Shown piece by piece: positions 37,413 to 38,367 of a DNA stretch of 64,000 bases (positions are counted from its first letter, which is position 1; each line of letters opens with the position of its first letter). The translations under genes were made by a program, and so were the position numbers. The notes under the pieces are model-generated. The model did no database searches. It saw only the letters and a program-made list of their open reading frames with translations, and was not told the origin of the DNA. This DNA is from a phage. The stretch is taken from sequence record PZ445554.1; one strand, written 5' to 3'.

Positions 37413-37489
37413 TGGCCAGGGTGAAAGGATTCTAACCTTTAACCTGCGGTTTAGAGGACCGCTACTCTATACAATTGAGTTACACCCCG
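37413..37489 (-). tRNA. tRNA-Arg (anticodon TCT)
   Basis: Cloverleaf: acceptor CGGGGTG/CACCCTG, D-stem ACTC/GAGT, anticodon stem GCGGT/ACCGC loop CCTCTAA, T-arm AAAGG-TTAGAAT-CCTTT, CCA encoded; unusual C33. Confidence 0.6.
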
Positions 37490-37615
37490 TAATTAGTTCA
37501 CAGCAATACCTACTCCAACAATCAAGATGTCTTCACACGAAATTAAGAGAAGAGTGATCAGTTCAACCCCTATAATCGCGTCAAGTAGATATTAATGTGA
37601 CAACTGTCACAAGTT

Positions 37616-37690
37616 TGGCGGACGTGATAGGATTCGAACCTATAACCAATCGCTTAACAGGCGATCGCTCTGCCATTGAGCTACACATCC
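37616..37690 (-). tRNA. tRNA-Asn (anticodon GTT)
   Basis: Acceptor GGATGTG/CACGTCC, D-arm GCTC-AATGGCA-GAGC, anticodon loop CTGTTAA, T-arm ATAGG-TTCGAAT-CCTAT, GCCA 3' end. Confidence 0.7.
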
Positions 37691-37694
37691 AAAT

Positions 37695-37781
37695 TGGTGG
37701 GGAGTGGTGGAGTCGAACCACCCGAGTCGCAATGACAATGAATTTACAGTCCACACCGCTACCTCTACGGGATAACTCCCC
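37695..37781 (-). tRNA. tRNA-Tyr (anticodon GTA)
   Basis: Class II tRNA, long variable arm; acceptor GGGGAGT/ACTCCCC, anticodon loop CTGTAAA, T-arm GGTGG-TTCGACT-CCACC, CCA encoded. Confidence 0.6.
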
Positions 37782-37794
37782 CTAATTCGTAATT

Positions 37795-37869
37795 TGGTGA
37801 CCCTGGGTGGAATTGAACCACCATCTGGCGATTATGAGTCGCTTGCTTGAACCTTCCAGCTACAGGGCC
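37795..37869 (-). tRNA. tRNA-Ile (anticodon CAT, lysidine type)
   Basis: Anticodon stem-loop GCGACTCATAATCGC identical to E. coli tRNA-Ile2; acceptor GGCCCTG/CAGGGTC; T-arm GGTGG-TTCAATT-CCACC; CCA encoded. Confidence 0.65.
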
Positions 37870-37870
37870 T

Positions 37871-37946
37871 TGGTGCTGATTGACGGAATCGAACCGCCGA
37901 CGTCCTCATTACAAGTGAGGTGCTCTACCTACTGAGCTAAATCAGC
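37871..37946 (-). tRNA. tRNA-Thr (anticodon TGT)
   Basis: Acceptor GCTGATT/AATCAGC, D-arm GCTC-AGTAGGTA-GAGC, anticodon stem CCTCA/TGAGG loop CTTGTAA, T-loop TTCGATT, CCA encoded. Confidence 0.7.
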
Positions 37947-37951
37947 AAAAC

Positions 37952-38041
37952 TGGCGGAGGCGATAGGATTTGAACCTATGAGTCGCCGGAGCGACTGCCG
38001 GTTTTCAAGACCGGTGCATTAAACCACTCTGCCACGCCTCC
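37952..38041 (-). tRNA. tRNA-Ser (anticodon TGA)
   Basis: Class II; acceptor GGAGGCG/CGCCTCC, anticodon stem CCGGT/ACCGG loop CTTGAAA, long variable arm, T-arm ATAGG-TTCAAAT-CCTAT, CCA encoded. Confidence 0.7.
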
Positions 38042-38043
38042 AG

Positions 38044-38117
38044 TCTCCGTGGCAGGATTTGAACCTACGACATTCTGCTCCCAAAGCAGACGCTCTACCA
38101 AACTGAGCTACACGGAG
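38044..38117 (-). tRNA. tRNA-Pro (anticodon TGG)
   Basis: Acceptor CTCCGTG/CACGGAG, D-arm GCTC-AGTTTGGTA-GAGC, anticodon stem TCTGC/GCAGA loop TTTGGGA; CCA not encoded. Confidence 0.65.
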
Positions 38118-38127
38118 TAAATTAAAT

Positions 38128-38201
38128 TGGAGCGGATAATGAGAATCGAACTCACATCATCAGATTGGAAGTCTGAGGTAATACCATTATACGATATCCG
38201 C
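38128..38201 (-). tRNA. tRNA-Gly (anticodon TCC)
   Basis: Acceptor GCGGATA/TATCCGC, anticodon loop CTTCCAA, T-arm GTGAG-TTCGATT-CTCAT, CCA encoded. Confidence 0.65.
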
Positions 38202-38206
38202 AAATT

Positions 38207-38293
38207 TGGTGCGAGAAGTGGGACTCGAACCCACAAGGAAATCATTCCGCAGCATTTTAAGTGCTGTGCCTTTACCAATTTGACCATTCTCGC
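38207..38293 (-). tRNA. tRNA-Leu (anticodon TAA)
   Basis: Class II; GCGAGAATGGTCAAATTGGTAAAGGCACAGCACTTAAAATGCTGCGG...GGGTTCGAGTCCCACTTCTCGCACCA recognised as T4 tRNA-Leu. Confidence 0.8.
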
Positions 38294-38294
38294 G

Positions 38295-38367
38295 CTGGGA
38301 ATAAAGGACTCGAACCTTTGCATCCTGGAATCAAAATCCAGTGCCTTACCAACTTGGCTAATTCCCA
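38295..38367 (-). tRNA. tRNA-Gln (anticodon TTG)
   Basis: Acceptor TGGGAAT/ATTCCCA, anticodon stem CTGGA/TCCAG loop TTTTGAT, T-arm AAAGG-TTCGAGT-CCTTT; CCA not encoded; 1 nt from tRNA-Leu. Confidence 0.7.

Follow-up and report, generated by a model that had tools for sequence, protein, structure and literature searches.

The window analysed here is a 64-kb stretch of phage DNA (64,000 nucleotides; record PZ445554.1) from a Tequatrovirus. ARAGORN calls ten tRNA genes in it and no others; they occupy 37413-38367 on the minus strand, lying between the upstream ORFs trna.2, trna.3 and trna.4 and the downstream genes rnaD, rnaC and e.8, all of which share that strand. In order of transcription, the features of the locus are:

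38437-38461 (-), T4 middle-promoter-like site (MotA box TGCTTTA, 12 nt, TATTAT), about 70 nt upstream of tRNA-Gln
38294-38367 (-), tRNA-Gln(UUG), first in transcription order, CCA not encoded; ARAGORN and Rfam
38207-38293 (-), tRNA-Leu(UAA), CCA encoded; ARAGORN and Rfam
38128-38201 (-), tRNA-Gly(UCC), CCA encoded; ARAGORN and Rfam
38043-38117 (-), tRNA-Pro(UGG), CCA not encoded; ARAGORN and Rfam
37952-38041 (-), tRNA-Ser(UGA), CCA encoded; ARAGORN and Rfam
37871-37946 (-), tRNA-Thr(UGU), CCA encoded, U36-A-A-U-G40-A41; ARAGORN and Rfam
37795-37869 (-), tRNA-Met/Ile(CAT), CCA encoded; ARAGORN and Rfam
37695-37781 (-), tRNA-Tyr(GUA), long variable arm, CCA encoded; ARAGORN
37616-37690 (-), tRNA-Asn(GUU), CCA encoded, U36-A-A-G39-C40-G41; ARAGORN and Rfam
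37499-37599 (-), 101-nt three-way-junction RNA element between Asn and Arg, conserved
37413-37489 (-), tRNA-Arg(UCU), last in order, CCA encoded; ARAGORN and Rfam
36837-37391 (-), ORF184, 184 aa, MUG113/T5orf172 (GIY-YIG-like), putative homing endonuclease
36745-36862 (-), homologue of rnaD (T4 species 2 stable RNA), 99% to T4, overlapping the 3' end of ORF184
36600-36738 (-), homologue of rnaC (T4 species 1 stable RNA), 98% to T4
36526-36549 (-), intrinsic-terminator-like hairpin, 10 pairs (7 G-C) followed by a T run, just 3' of rnaC

A preliminary description of this DNA had proposed ten tRNAs by hand folding, and ARAGORN returns the same ten identities at the same coordinates, accepting Tyr and Asn, the two assignments that had been put to a tRNA finder. 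Nine of the ten genes also score above the gathering threshold (29) of the Rfam tRNA model RF00005, at 56.9-74.1 bits, the exception being Tyr. Only Gln (3' end ...CCCAG-C, then Leu) and Pro (...GGAGA-CT, then Ser) lack an encoded CCA, as had been noted, and the remaining 8/10 carry it. The packing of 1-10 nt given in that description needs amending: the intergenic gaps are, in order, 0, 5, 10, 1, 5, 1, 13, 4 and 126 nt, so that the range misses Gln-Leu (0), the gap upstream of Tyr (13) and the Asn-Arg gap (126; 37490-37615) and holds for the others.

Transcription of the cluster probably starts at the MotA-type middle promoter, one of 14 MotA-type sites in the window (2.5 expected), and the unit probably ends at the hairpin terminator past rnaC; early promoters further upstream are also likely to contribute by read-through. 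By extension from T4, host RNase P and enzymes of 3' processing would mature the polycistronic precursor into ten tRNAs, and the host CCA-adding enzyme would finish Gln and Pro.

The gene order Gln-Leu-Gly-Pro-Ser-Thr-CAT-Tyr-Asn-Arg is matched in the annotated ten-tRNA arrays of 236Ecol005PP and G4498, and for most genes the identity to named relatives lies between 73/75 and 90/90. Both flanks are collinear with T4 at 95-98% (trna.4 to trna.2 on one side, rnaD and rnaC to e.8 on the other), and rnaD/rnaC and the terminator are common to T4 and the window. The T4 cluster itself runs Gln Leu Gly Pro Ser Thr Ile, segB, Arg, rnaD, rnaC, with segB standing where the window carries Tyr, Asn, the RNA element and Arg. 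The proximal tRNAs are nearly the same in the two phages (Leu 87/87, Gly 74/74, Thr 75/76, Ser 87/90), whereas Gln (66/74) and Pro (64/75) are different alleles and tRNA-Ile(CAT) (48/75) and Arg (49/77) are unrelated ones. The eight T4 species listed in the preliminary description are thus present as anticodons but not as genes, the CAT, Arg, Gln and Pro tRNAs being other alleles than those of T4; its statement that Tyr and Asn stand outside the T4 set holds, T4 having neither. Gln and Pro lack CCA in T4 as in the window, while T4 Ser and Ile additionally lack the CCA that the window Ser and CAT tRNAs encode. The window Gln, which differs from the T4/T2/T6 allele in its anticodon arm (66/74), matches G4498 at 74/74, and Pro matches pSe_SNUABM_01 at 75/75.

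The closer counterparts of the distal part are found in T2 (MH751506) and in T2L, RB1 and RB3, which carry, at a matching genome position and on the same strand, the Met/Ile(CAU)-Tyr-Asn-Arg block missing from T4. Identities of T2 to the window are 75/75 for Asn, 86/87 for Tyr and 74/75 for the CAT tRNA, which is therefore a T2-type allele. T2 differs in having no Thr, with the ORF trna.1 in its place, and in its Arg, which follows Asn after 4 nt, is 49/77 identical to that of the window, has U33 and a normal T loop, and is followed by a 116-aa ORF; neither the 101-nt element nor ORF184 occurs in T2. T6 carries a tRNA-Tyr identical to ours (87/87) in the corresponding cluster, with segB directly after it and with no Pro, Ser or Asn in the T6 stretch examined. 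With segB missing from the window, this phage has no recourse to SegB-driven amplification of Tyr. The CAT tRNA is most likely of the AUA-reading Ile2 type (CAU modified to lysidine), which would be recognised by host TilS and charged with isoleucine, and not Met, given its annotation as 'tRNA-Ile' in T4, 'CAU anticodon probably modified' in the T2 record and 'tRNA-Ile2 (cat)' in EAWsc9, and the 4.4-fold enrichment of ATA in phage ORFs.

The locus is an ordinary T4-like phage tRNA cluster, in a ten-gene form already known from T2/T6. Judged on sequence, the explanation as a whole, namely a Tequatrovirus operon of T2/T6 type and not T4 type that combines tRNA supplementation, mosaic cassettes and a gap RNA, is in our view very probably correct.

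Tyr and Asn, the headline of the preliminary description, are not unusual for the T-even group. The tRNA region of T2L/RB1/RB3 was mapped in 2008 with Met(CAU), Tyr, Asn and Arg (Brok-Volchanskaya et al., PMC2330249); the Tyr-Asn segment occurs in 434 phage records (460 by a count at 95% identity or more), T2, ACG-C40 and G4498 being among the carriers; and among annotated relatives T2 has both tRNAs and T6 has Tyr. Moreover, the T6 tRNA-Tyr, described as relatively unstable, is expressed, shows up on Northern blots and protects T6 against Septu, which T4, having no tRNA-Tyr, is unable to escape (Chihara et al. 2026, PMC13096335). The finding as it was stated is therefore already known, these being T-even tRNAs documented since at least 2008. 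What may be undescribed inside these coordinates is a mobile Arg plus T5orf172 cassette and a new class of structured RNA, and that both are so is a tentative proposition, to be received with some doubt.

It is scarcely credible that Tyr, Asn and the variant Arg are decaying pseudogenes or chance cloverleafs. Tyr does lack an RF00005 match at the gathering score, its best clan match being 30.9 bits to the tRNA-Sec model RF01852, below cut-off; this shortfall reflects a D stem with imperfect, mismatched pairing and an anticodon stem that contains two G-U pairs, and Arg for its part departs from U33, G19 and C56. Against this reading, the Tyr gene has the very sequence of the T6 gene whose product was detected on Northern blots and rescues infection (PMC13096335), and the ACG-C40 copy, one base different, has a tRNAscan-SE score of 39.13 according to the annotation of that record. 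Asn has the highest RF00005 score of the window (74.1 bits) and Arg scores 59.3 bits, the Tyr-Asn segment is highly conserved across hundreds of records, and the Arg family preserves all its stems by compensatory changes.

The codon-usage comparison with the host that had been suggested alongside the tRNA calls fits tRNA supplementation. Codon counts in 80 window ORFs (mechanical calls) were set against those in 46 E. coli K-12 CDS only, and in this comparison the eleven most phage-enriched codons (in order, AGA 7.8-fold, ATA 4.4-fold, ACT, TCA, AGG, TCT, GGA, AAT 2.4-fold, ACA, TAT 2.1-fold and TTA) are all read by the ten tRNAs; Lys AAA is enriched 1.95-fold, yet the cluster has no tRNA-Lys. 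By reading the A/U-ending codons that the AT-rich phage overuses relative to E. coli (AGA, AUA, ACU/ACA, UCA/UCU, GGA, AAU, UAU and UUA), the tRNAs would raise the supply for phage translation, and they may also sustain decoding when host defences deplete host tRNAs, an effect demonstrated for the identical T6 tRNA-Tyr with Septu. By analogy, an anti-defence role of the window Asn and Thr against the PARIS effector AriB is plausible: AriB cuts tRNA-Lys, Thr(UGU) and Asn(GUU) at UAAUC|N (PMC12409363), and at that position the window Asn reads UAAGC|G. The sequence does not separate codon supply from anti-defence.

The last tRNA of the cluster stands apart from the rest. It folds with stems of 7/4/5/5 pairs and a 7-nt anticodon loop (ARAGORN, with the Rfam score given above), and the loop CCUCUAA reads C32-C33-U34-C35-U36-A37-A38, confirming the C at position 33 that the hand fold had shown. 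U33 is almost universal among elongator tRNAs and is present in the other nine tRNAs of the window, so that this tRNA-Arg may decode poorly. It likewise breaks the G19/C56 rule, with a D loop AAUUGUAUA (G18, U19) and a T loop UUAGAAU (A56), a two-sided change that would keep a Watson-Crick elbow pair and that is found in 6/6 family members examined. The allele also has C1-G72. Within the family, compensatory changes convert pair 10-25 from G-C to A-U and pair 27-43 from A-U to G-C, and the T stem runs from GAAGG/CCTTC through AAAGG/CCTTT to GTGGG/CCCAC. The identity of 49/77 rules out that this is the T4 tRNA-Arg; the Arg(UCU) gene exists in four alternative alleles, of which the window has one. 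Nor is C33 a sequencing error or a private mutation, as it is identical in 16 phage records (a 41/41-nt match to the C33 anticodon arm) and recurs in a diverged C33 allele in AV110. C33 and G27 are the only changes common to the window and AV110 alleles, and neither occurs in the four family alleles without an adjoining ORF184 (G4498, phi25-307, pSe_SNUABM_01 and EAWsc9). The locus thereby offers, as a by-product, an elongator tRNA with a natural, conserved C33 that serves AGA, the rare codon most overused by the phage.

ORF184, immediately downstream, matches two nuclease-related domain models over residues 85-155, MUG113 at 37.9 bits (E=2.7e-9; cut-off 22.3) and T5orf172 at 27.9 bits (E=3.4e-6; cut-off 20), and the motifs VYI...YKIG...R...E...EWF can be read in its translation; no recognised DNA-binding domain was detected in it. 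At 90% amino-acid identity or more, it occurs in the same 16 records as the C33 Arg allele (16/16, these records representing 13 phages), which span Tequatrovirus, Gaprivervirus and Dhakavirus, and it is absent from T4, T2, T6, ACG-C40 and G4498. Confinement of the C33 allele to exactly the ORF184-bearing records, across three genera, suggests a mobile cassette. The cassettes of VR7 (Gaprivervirus) and ESCO10 (Dhakavirus) match the window at 90-94% identity, as against 69-78% for the upstream flanks, and homology breaks off sharply at 37490; on the downstream side the limit of the cassette is blurred by rnaD/rnaC, which every relative conserves. Furthermore, AV110 pairs an ORF 78% identical to ORF184 with its own diverged Arg allele, likewise C33, and more distant homologues of ORF184 adjoin tRNA-Arg(UCU) in KpV477 and in the T5-like RN29.

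Such an arrangement has parallels. SegB of T4 and the T5orf172 genes of T5 and ICP1 are, like ORF184, small nuclease-domain ORFs among tRNA genes, although ORF184 is not a homologue of SegB. With free-standing GIY-YIG/T5orf172 genes it shares a patchy presence in close relatives, a sharp homology break and a linked flanking allele that travels with it. T5orf172 genes have been described as putative homing endonucleases at recombination boundaries (PMC10448857), and SegB homing, with co-conversion, has been documented for the T-even tRNA region itself, the preferred SegB cleavage site lying in the T2 tRNA-Asn gene (PMC2330249), to which the window Asn is identical. The distal part of the cluster would accordingly be a recombination hot spot holding alternative cassettes, each with its own Arg(UCU) allele: segB plus Arg in T4, Arg plus the 116-aa ORF in T2, and the C33 Arg plus the 184-aa T5orf172/GIY-YIG-like ORF in the window. 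The last of these is most likely an intronless homing unit whose spread co-converts the diverged Arg allele beside it, the endonuclease activity and the homing of ORF184 being putative and inferred from domain match and distribution only. The cassette may thus consist of an Arg(UCU) tRNA that breaks three near-universal rules (C33, U19 and A56) and a T5orf172 gene, and may have crossed at least three Tevenvirinae genera. On this reading, the locus illustrates how phage tRNA sets may be assembled, with selfish nuclease genes shuffling alternative tRNA alleles at one hot spot.

The C33/G27 signature may be an immunity mark against the phage's own putative endonuclease, or it may reflect escape from an anticodon nuclease. 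Under the former reading, C33 (with G27) is selected at the DNA level and makes the phage's own Arg gene immune to ORF184, whose predicted target would be the U33-type Arg of phages without ORF184. The 16/16 co-occurrence is what one would then expect, as is the restriction of C33/G27 to alleles adjoining ORF184 or its AV110 relative, and the position of the distant homologues beside tRNA-Arg(UCU) in KpV477 and RN29 points the same way; SegB provides a precedent, in that it cuts within tRNA genes while its own genome is spared by sequence differences (PMC2330249). The same link could, however, be plain descent through few transfers, the 16 records being 13 phages, and both target and activity of ORF184 are putative. 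We regard DNA-level immunity as a real possibility, yet one we would not favour outright.

Selection of C33 at the RNA level, by which tRNA-Arg would escape an anticodon nuclease, of the host or of a competitor, or a modification-dependent toxin that reads the U33 loop, appears quite unlikely. We know of no nuclease that cuts tRNA-Arg(UCU) in a U33-dependent manner, which counts against it; colicin D, for its part, cleaves at 38/39. RNA-level selection would also leave the strict linkage to ORF184 unexplained. In its favour, two alleles with about 14 further differences between them have both kept C33, the tRNA serves the most phage-enriched codon and thus matters to the phage, and phage tRNAs substituted in the anticodon loop or stem at tRNase sites are on record (PMC10264068, PMC12409363). 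The single paper found on nuclease escape by U33C reports that cleavage by the K. lactis gamma-toxin is unaffected (PMC2275089) and so lends no support, and an eLife 2023 paper on phage tRNA anticodon-loop mutations mentions neither position 33 nor tRNA-Arg.

The gap between Asn and Arg holds the 101-nt element, whose three-way junction is formed by P1 (17 pairs), P2 with a variable hairpin, and P3 (4 pairs, 7-nt loop). It is found in 356 phage records, always within tRNA arrays, in tRNA operons of Straboviridae and Vequintavirinae. In relatives such as ACG-C40, PG7 and Roth51 it lies directly 5' of tRNA-His, which is missing in the window, and it is intact in the His-less teqskov and 236Ecol005PP. 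Among only 7 sequences, 9/32 pairs are changed on both sides; paired cells amount to 95.5%, compared with at most 54% in slid controls, and 0/500 shuffles reach the observed values. In W70 the sequence of P1 is wholly different with pairing kept, and in STP4-a the P2 hairpin is swapped for another hairpin. A covariance model of the element (R1) scores 114.7 bits on the sense strand of the window; on the antisense strand it gives no match in the window up to E=1 and about 24 bits where reported (KaAlpha, STP4-a), G-U pairs making the fold strand-specific. The single-sequence fold has a modest z-score of -2.45, and R1 finds nothing in the T4 locus.

Several other identities for the gap were rejected. 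Rfam 15 gave no family match in 37490-37615 on either strand at E up to 10, so that known RNA families and ribozymes are ruled out; a small ORF is rejected in that none of at least 40 aa spans 37499-37580; and neither blastn nor covariance models detected similarity to rnaC or rnaD. A degenerate tRNA-His is ruled out in that ARAGORN calls nothing there and the gap aligns to the leader preceding tRNA-His in ACG-C40, PG7 and Roth51, and a promoter in that no sigma-70, MotA-box or late-promoter consensus lies within the element.

A broader alternative is that the element acts as DNA (promoter, recombination site or endonuclease site) or is the dead relic of a lost tRNA-His leader. Its location right on the edge of the swapped cassette, the missing partner tRNA-His and the modest z-score would suit such a role, but the two-sided covariation, the replaced yet still paired P1 of W70 and P2 of STP4-a, the strand-specific fold, the absence of a promoter consensus inside it and its intact state in two His-less phages all argue otherwise, and we consider the alternative improbable. 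The element may rather represent a new class of structured RNA in phages that as a rule is joined to tRNA-His on its 5' side and here has been retained intact without that partner. Processing of the flanking tRNAs would most likely free it from the precursor as a small stable RNA, and such a co-processed RNA could serve in tRNA-His maturation (phage tRNA-His having no encoded G-1) or as a decoy. The rnaC and rnaD RNAs resemble it as non-tRNA RNAs of about 100-140 nt in a tRNA transcription unit, presumably excised by tRNA processing, and differ from it in position and fold. The locus thus yields, as a further by-product, an unannotated structured RNA in several hundred phage genomes. A scan of IMG/VR with a 15-mer from the element returned 52 loci, 4 of them true homologues and the rest chance matches, the phage GenBank collection being the far richer source.

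An ARAGORN search of the entire 64-kb window returned exactly ten tRNA genes; they share the minus strand, lie within 37413-38367 and have the same identities that had been assigned by hand folding in the preliminary description, Tyr and Asn included. In transcription order, ARAGORN placed them as follows:

38294-38367, minus strand, tRNA-Gln(ttg)
38207-38293, minus strand, tRNA-Leu(taa)
38128-38201, minus strand, tRNA-Gly(tcc)
38043-38117, minus strand, tRNA-Pro(tgg)
37952-38041, minus strand, tRNA-Ser(tga)
37871-37946, minus strand, tRNA-Thr(tgt)
37795-37869, minus strand, tRNA-Met/Ile(cat)
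37695-37781, minus strand, tRNA-Tyr(gta)
37616-37690, minus strand, tRNA-Asn(gtt)
37413-37489, minus strand, tRNA-Arg(tct)

The spacers, in the same order, measure 0, 5, 10, 1, 5, 1, 13, 4 and then 126 nt, such that the packing of 1-10 nt previously described holds for most intervals but not for those of 0 and 13 nt or for the 126-nt Asn-Arg interval (37490-37615). Reading the 3'-ends of all ten genes, we found CCA to be unencoded only in tRNA-Gln and tRNA-Pro, as had been noted; T4 differs in that its tRNA-Ser and tRNA-Ile are without an encoded CCA, which their window counterparts do encode. The anticodon loop of tRNA-Arg, CCUCUAA, likewise bears out the reported C at position 33, with U33 present in the nine others. 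Nine of the ten genes exceeded the gathering score of the Rfam tRNA model (56.9-74.1 bits). The sole exception was tRNA-Tyr, whose top match under permissive thresholds, 30.9 bits to the tRNA-Sec model, falls short of the cut-off set for that model; its low score is attributable to a mismatch in the D stem and two G-U pairs in the anticodon stem, as seen in the ARAGORN drawing.

A 1.2-kb cluster query matched 791 phage records, almost all of T4-like coliphages, with Shigella phage TB004 as the top match (96.8%). The flanks are collinear with T4, with ORFs trna.4, trna.3 and trna.2 upstream and rnaD, rnaC and then e.8 downstream in T4-like order. Tyr and Asn do lie outside the T4 set, as proposed: the T4 order is Gln-Leu-Gly-Pro-Ser-Thr-Ile, segB, Arg, rnaD, rnaC. 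In contrast, the annotated T2 genome carries Met(CAU)-Tyr-Asn-Arg, T6 carries tRNA-Tyr, ACG-C40 carries Tyr, Asn, His and Arg, and 236Ecol005PP and G4498 have the identical ten genes in identical order. The Tyr-Asn segment is nearly whole in 434 records and at least 95% identical in 460, and the window genes match tRNA-Asn of T2 (75/75) and tRNA-Tyr of T6 (87/87) without a difference. Moreover, T4 SegB prefers to cut inside the T2L tRNA-Asn gene, so that homing replaces the block bearing Tyr and Asn (Brok-Volchanskaya et al., PMC2330249). Since both T2/T6-type relatives and the literature contain Tyr and Asn, the ten-tRNA set is correctly described but already known, a common and documented T2/T6-type arrangement to which T4, not the window phage, is the exception.

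A codon-usage comparison with the host, which the preliminary description had proposed for late genes, was made with ORFs from the window. Comparing 80 mechanically called, uncurated window ORFs (17,595 codons) with 46 annotated genes of E. coli K-12 (14,635 codons), both small samples, we found that the eleven most phage-enriched codons (AGA 7.8-fold, ATA 4.4, ACT 3.3, TCA 3.1, AGG 3.1, TCT 3.0, GGA 2.6, AAT 2.4, ACA 2.2, TAT 2.1 and TTA 2.0) are all read by the ten tRNAs. This enrichment, Tyr and Asn codons included, fits classical codon supplementation.

A second, non-exclusive role would be protection from tRNA-targeting immunity. T6 expresses its tRNA-Tyr, which saves it from Septu, a cleaver of the tRNA-Tyr variable loop, and T4, devoid of tRNA-Tyr, fails to escape (PMC13096335); the tRNA-Tyr of T5 similarly counters retron-Eco7 (PMC11555353). 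The targets of PARIS AriB in E. coli are tRNA-Lys(UUU), Thr(UGU) and Asn(GUU), each cleaved after position 40 (40|41), adjacent to a UAAU motif, and T5 provides AriB-resistant variants (PMC12409363). Because the window tRNA-Asn reads UAAGC|G (U36-A-A-G39-C40-G41) against the host UAAUC|C, and tRNA-Thr(UGU) reads UAAUG|A (U36-A-A-U-G40-A41) against the E. coli AriB site UAAUC|N, it is plausible that both are cleavage-resistant variants.

The cluster lies among the following further features:

38461-38437, minus strand, MotA-box middle-promoter-like site (TGCTTTA, 12 nt, TATTAT), ~70 nt upstream of tRNA-Gln
37499-37599, minus strand, 101-nt three-way-junction RNA element
36837-37391, minus strand, ORF184 (184 codons), starting 21 nt past tRNA-Arg, its last 26 nt overlapping the rnaD start
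36957-36985, minus strand, sigma-70 promoter-like site (TTGAAA, 17 nt, TATAAT; 11/12 consensus matches), inside ORF184, ~95 nt upstream of rnaD
36745-36862, minus strand, rnaD homologue (T4 stable RNA), 99% identical to T4
36600-36738, minus strand, rnaC homologue (T4 stable RNA), 98% identical to T4
36549-36526, minus strand, terminator-like strong hairpin and T run, 3' of rnaC

MotA-type sites number 14 in the window, against 2.5 expected by chance. With such a site before tRNA-Gln and a terminator after rnaC, the unit probably runs promoter, nine tRNAs, RNA element, tRNA-Arg, ORF184, rnaD, rnaC, terminator, and the sigma-70-like site could drive rnaD and rnaC apart from the tRNA promoter. 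In T4, RNase P and 3'-processing enzymes of the host cut the tRNA precursors, and CCA is added; by analogy, the same enzymes would process the window transcript, with CCA added to Gln and Pro. The tRNA-like 3' part of rnaC was not called by ARAGORN in the window and was called in ACG-C40 (locus L003, 1716-1811).

Comparing each tRNA across relatives, we found Leu, Gly, Ser and Thr to be essentially invariant, T4 included, while Gln, Pro, CAT and Arg differ from T4. tRNA-Gln matches T4, T2 and T6 at 66/74 positions and G4498 at 74/74; tRNA-Pro matches T4 at 64/75 and pSe_SNUABM_01 at 75/75; the CAT tRNA matches T4 at 48/75 and T2 at 74/75; and tRNA-Arg matches both T4 and T2 at 49/77. Since these identities split by relative, the four tRNAs come as alternative versions and the cluster is, by sequence comparison, a mosaic of tRNA alleles, of which the non-T4 Gln and Pro alleles are further signs of shuffling. 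The anticodon arm of tRNA-Gln is replaced (loop UUUUGAU versus CUUUGAC in T4, T2 and T6) and, among the loci fetched, is identical only to that of G4498.

One location is occupied by tRNA-Arg(UCU) alleles of at least four kinds, which are either unrelated or related only distantly: the T4 allele; the T2/ACG-C40 allele; a family whose D loop is AAUUGUAUA and whose T loop is UUAGAAU (G4498, phi25-307, pSe_SNUABM_01, EAWsc9); and, nested in this family, the window allele. Throughout the family G19 and C56 are both substituted, to U19 and A56, which would keep the elbow pair. Pair 10-25 changes from G-C to A-U, pair 27-43 from A-U to G-C, and the T stem occurs as GAAGG/CCTTC, AAAGG/CCTTT and GTGGG/CCCAC. 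Because stems change on both sides, the family carries the signature of evolution under structural constraint, which would not be expected of a decaying pseudogene.

The C33 allele is tied to ORF184, which matches the MUG113 and T5orf172 domains, both over cut-off; T5orf172 is a GIY-YIG-like nuclease subfamily considered a phage homing endonuclease family (PMC10448857). Searching with 41 nt around the anticodon loop gave full identity (41/41), and hence C33, in 16 records, with the next-best group at 88-89%, and tblastn detected ORF184 homologues of at least 90% identity in 16 records. The two sets are the same 16 (16/16 linkage), spanning three genera: Tequatrovirus (UFV-AREG1, teqskov, BCH953P2, LF82-9, sutha, REP2, REP3, 236Ecol005PP, TB004), Gaprivervirus (VR7, VR26) and Dhakavirus (ESCO10). 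From Arg to rnaD, VR7 and ESCO10 are 90-94% identical to the window, compared with 69-78% for upstream genes, and homology breaks off precisely at 37490, where tRNA-Arg has its 5' end. In T4, T2, ACG-C40 and G4498, which are devoid of ORF184, homology with the window ends at 36859-36869, the rnaD start. These edges delimit an apparent swapped unit of ~625 bp, tRNA-Arg plus ORF184. The C33 tRNA-Arg is unannotated in VR7 (RefSeq NC_014792), where only tRNA-Met is annotated in the tRNA region and ARAGORN places the Arg gene between it and VR7ORF148c (locus L063, 1978-2054); TB004 and VR26 are likewise without annotation for it.

In Mosigvirus AV110, an ORF184 homologue (78% identical) adjoins a clearly diverged Arg allele, with another acceptor stem, D loop and T stem, that nevertheless carries C33 and G27. 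All four Arg-family members with a 116-aa ORF downstream instead have U33 and A27. More distant homologues also adjoin tRNA-Arg(UCU), in Jiaodavirus KpV477 (59% aa identity; locus L068, 1106-1800) and the T5-like RN29 (Epseptimavirus; 40%; locus L067, 1183-1781), and each of these ORFs overlaps with its 3' end the tRNA gene that follows. Our reading of this distribution is that tRNA-Arg and ORF184 form a putative homing cassette, intronless and SegB-like, whose homing would drag the neighbouring Arg allele along by co-conversion, and that C33/G27 may protect the cassette from its own putative nuclease. C33 could possibly serve instead at the RNA level, as an escape of tRNA-Arg from an anticodon nuclease, but in the one relevant paper found, U33C leaves gamma-toxin cleavage unaffected (PMC2275089). 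Speculatively, the family might be shielded from SegB too, as its T loop, GGTTAGAATCC, deviates from GGTTCRANTCC, the recognition core of SegB within tRNA genes (PMC2330249). We regard the distinct C33/U19/A56 allele with its linked ORF184 as a modest lead rather than a surprise, and rate equally the conserved, covarying, unannotated RNA element in the cluster's only long gap.

Window positions 37499-37615 are 95-98% identical to a stretch in about 200 Tequatroviruses, where it sits between tRNA-Asn and tRNA-His, the latter missing from the window. Homologues of 77-87% identity occur in Karamvirus PG7 and KaAlpha, Klebsiella T4-like phages (Roth51 and many others), Gelderlandvirus STP4-a and Vequintavirinae phage W70, giving 356 phage records with the element. 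In every case examined it is part of a tRNA array and shares the strand of the tRNAs, usually with tRNA-His directly adjoining on its 3' side; in W70 it adjoins tRNA-Gln. Aligning seven distinct versions yielded a fold with a closing helix P1 (17 pairs), P2 (5 invariant pairs bearing a variable hairpin) and P3 (4 pairs, 7-nt loop). Compensatory changes occur at 9 of 32 pairs across the seven sequences, 95.5% of cells are paired, a share that drops to 34-54% if the partners are displaced by 1-3 columns, and none of 500 shuffles matched the observed pairing or covariation. P1 of W70 keeps its pairing with wholly different sequence, and STP4-a has an unrelated hairpin in place of the P2 hairpin. 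The fold is thus strongly supported, and we conclude that the element is a structured RNA.

A covariance model built from this alignment gave 114.7 bits for the window copy in the orientation of the tRNAs, with no antisense match in the window (E up to 1) and antisense matches of about 24 bits in KaAlpha and STP4-a; it found no copy in the T4, T2, G4498, VR7 and ESCO10 loci. Rfam 15 gave no match in the Asn-Arg gap (E up to 10), and neither an ORF of at least 40 aa over the element core nor a promoter consensus inside it was found. Since both ends of the element lie in P1, flush with the flanking tRNAs, tRNA processing would most likely free it to form a small stable RNA, in the manner of T4 species 1 and 2 RNAs. 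It is intact in three phages without tRNA-His (the window phage, teqskov, 236Ecol005PP), which mildly suggests a role of its own. In relatives, the tRNA-His that follows (L003 2428-2504 in ACG-C40; also L005 and L006) has T at -1, leaving G-1 unencoded. The GTG with which this tRNA-His starts is able to pair into P1 at its outer end, a hint that the element may be connected with tRNA-His 5' maturation.
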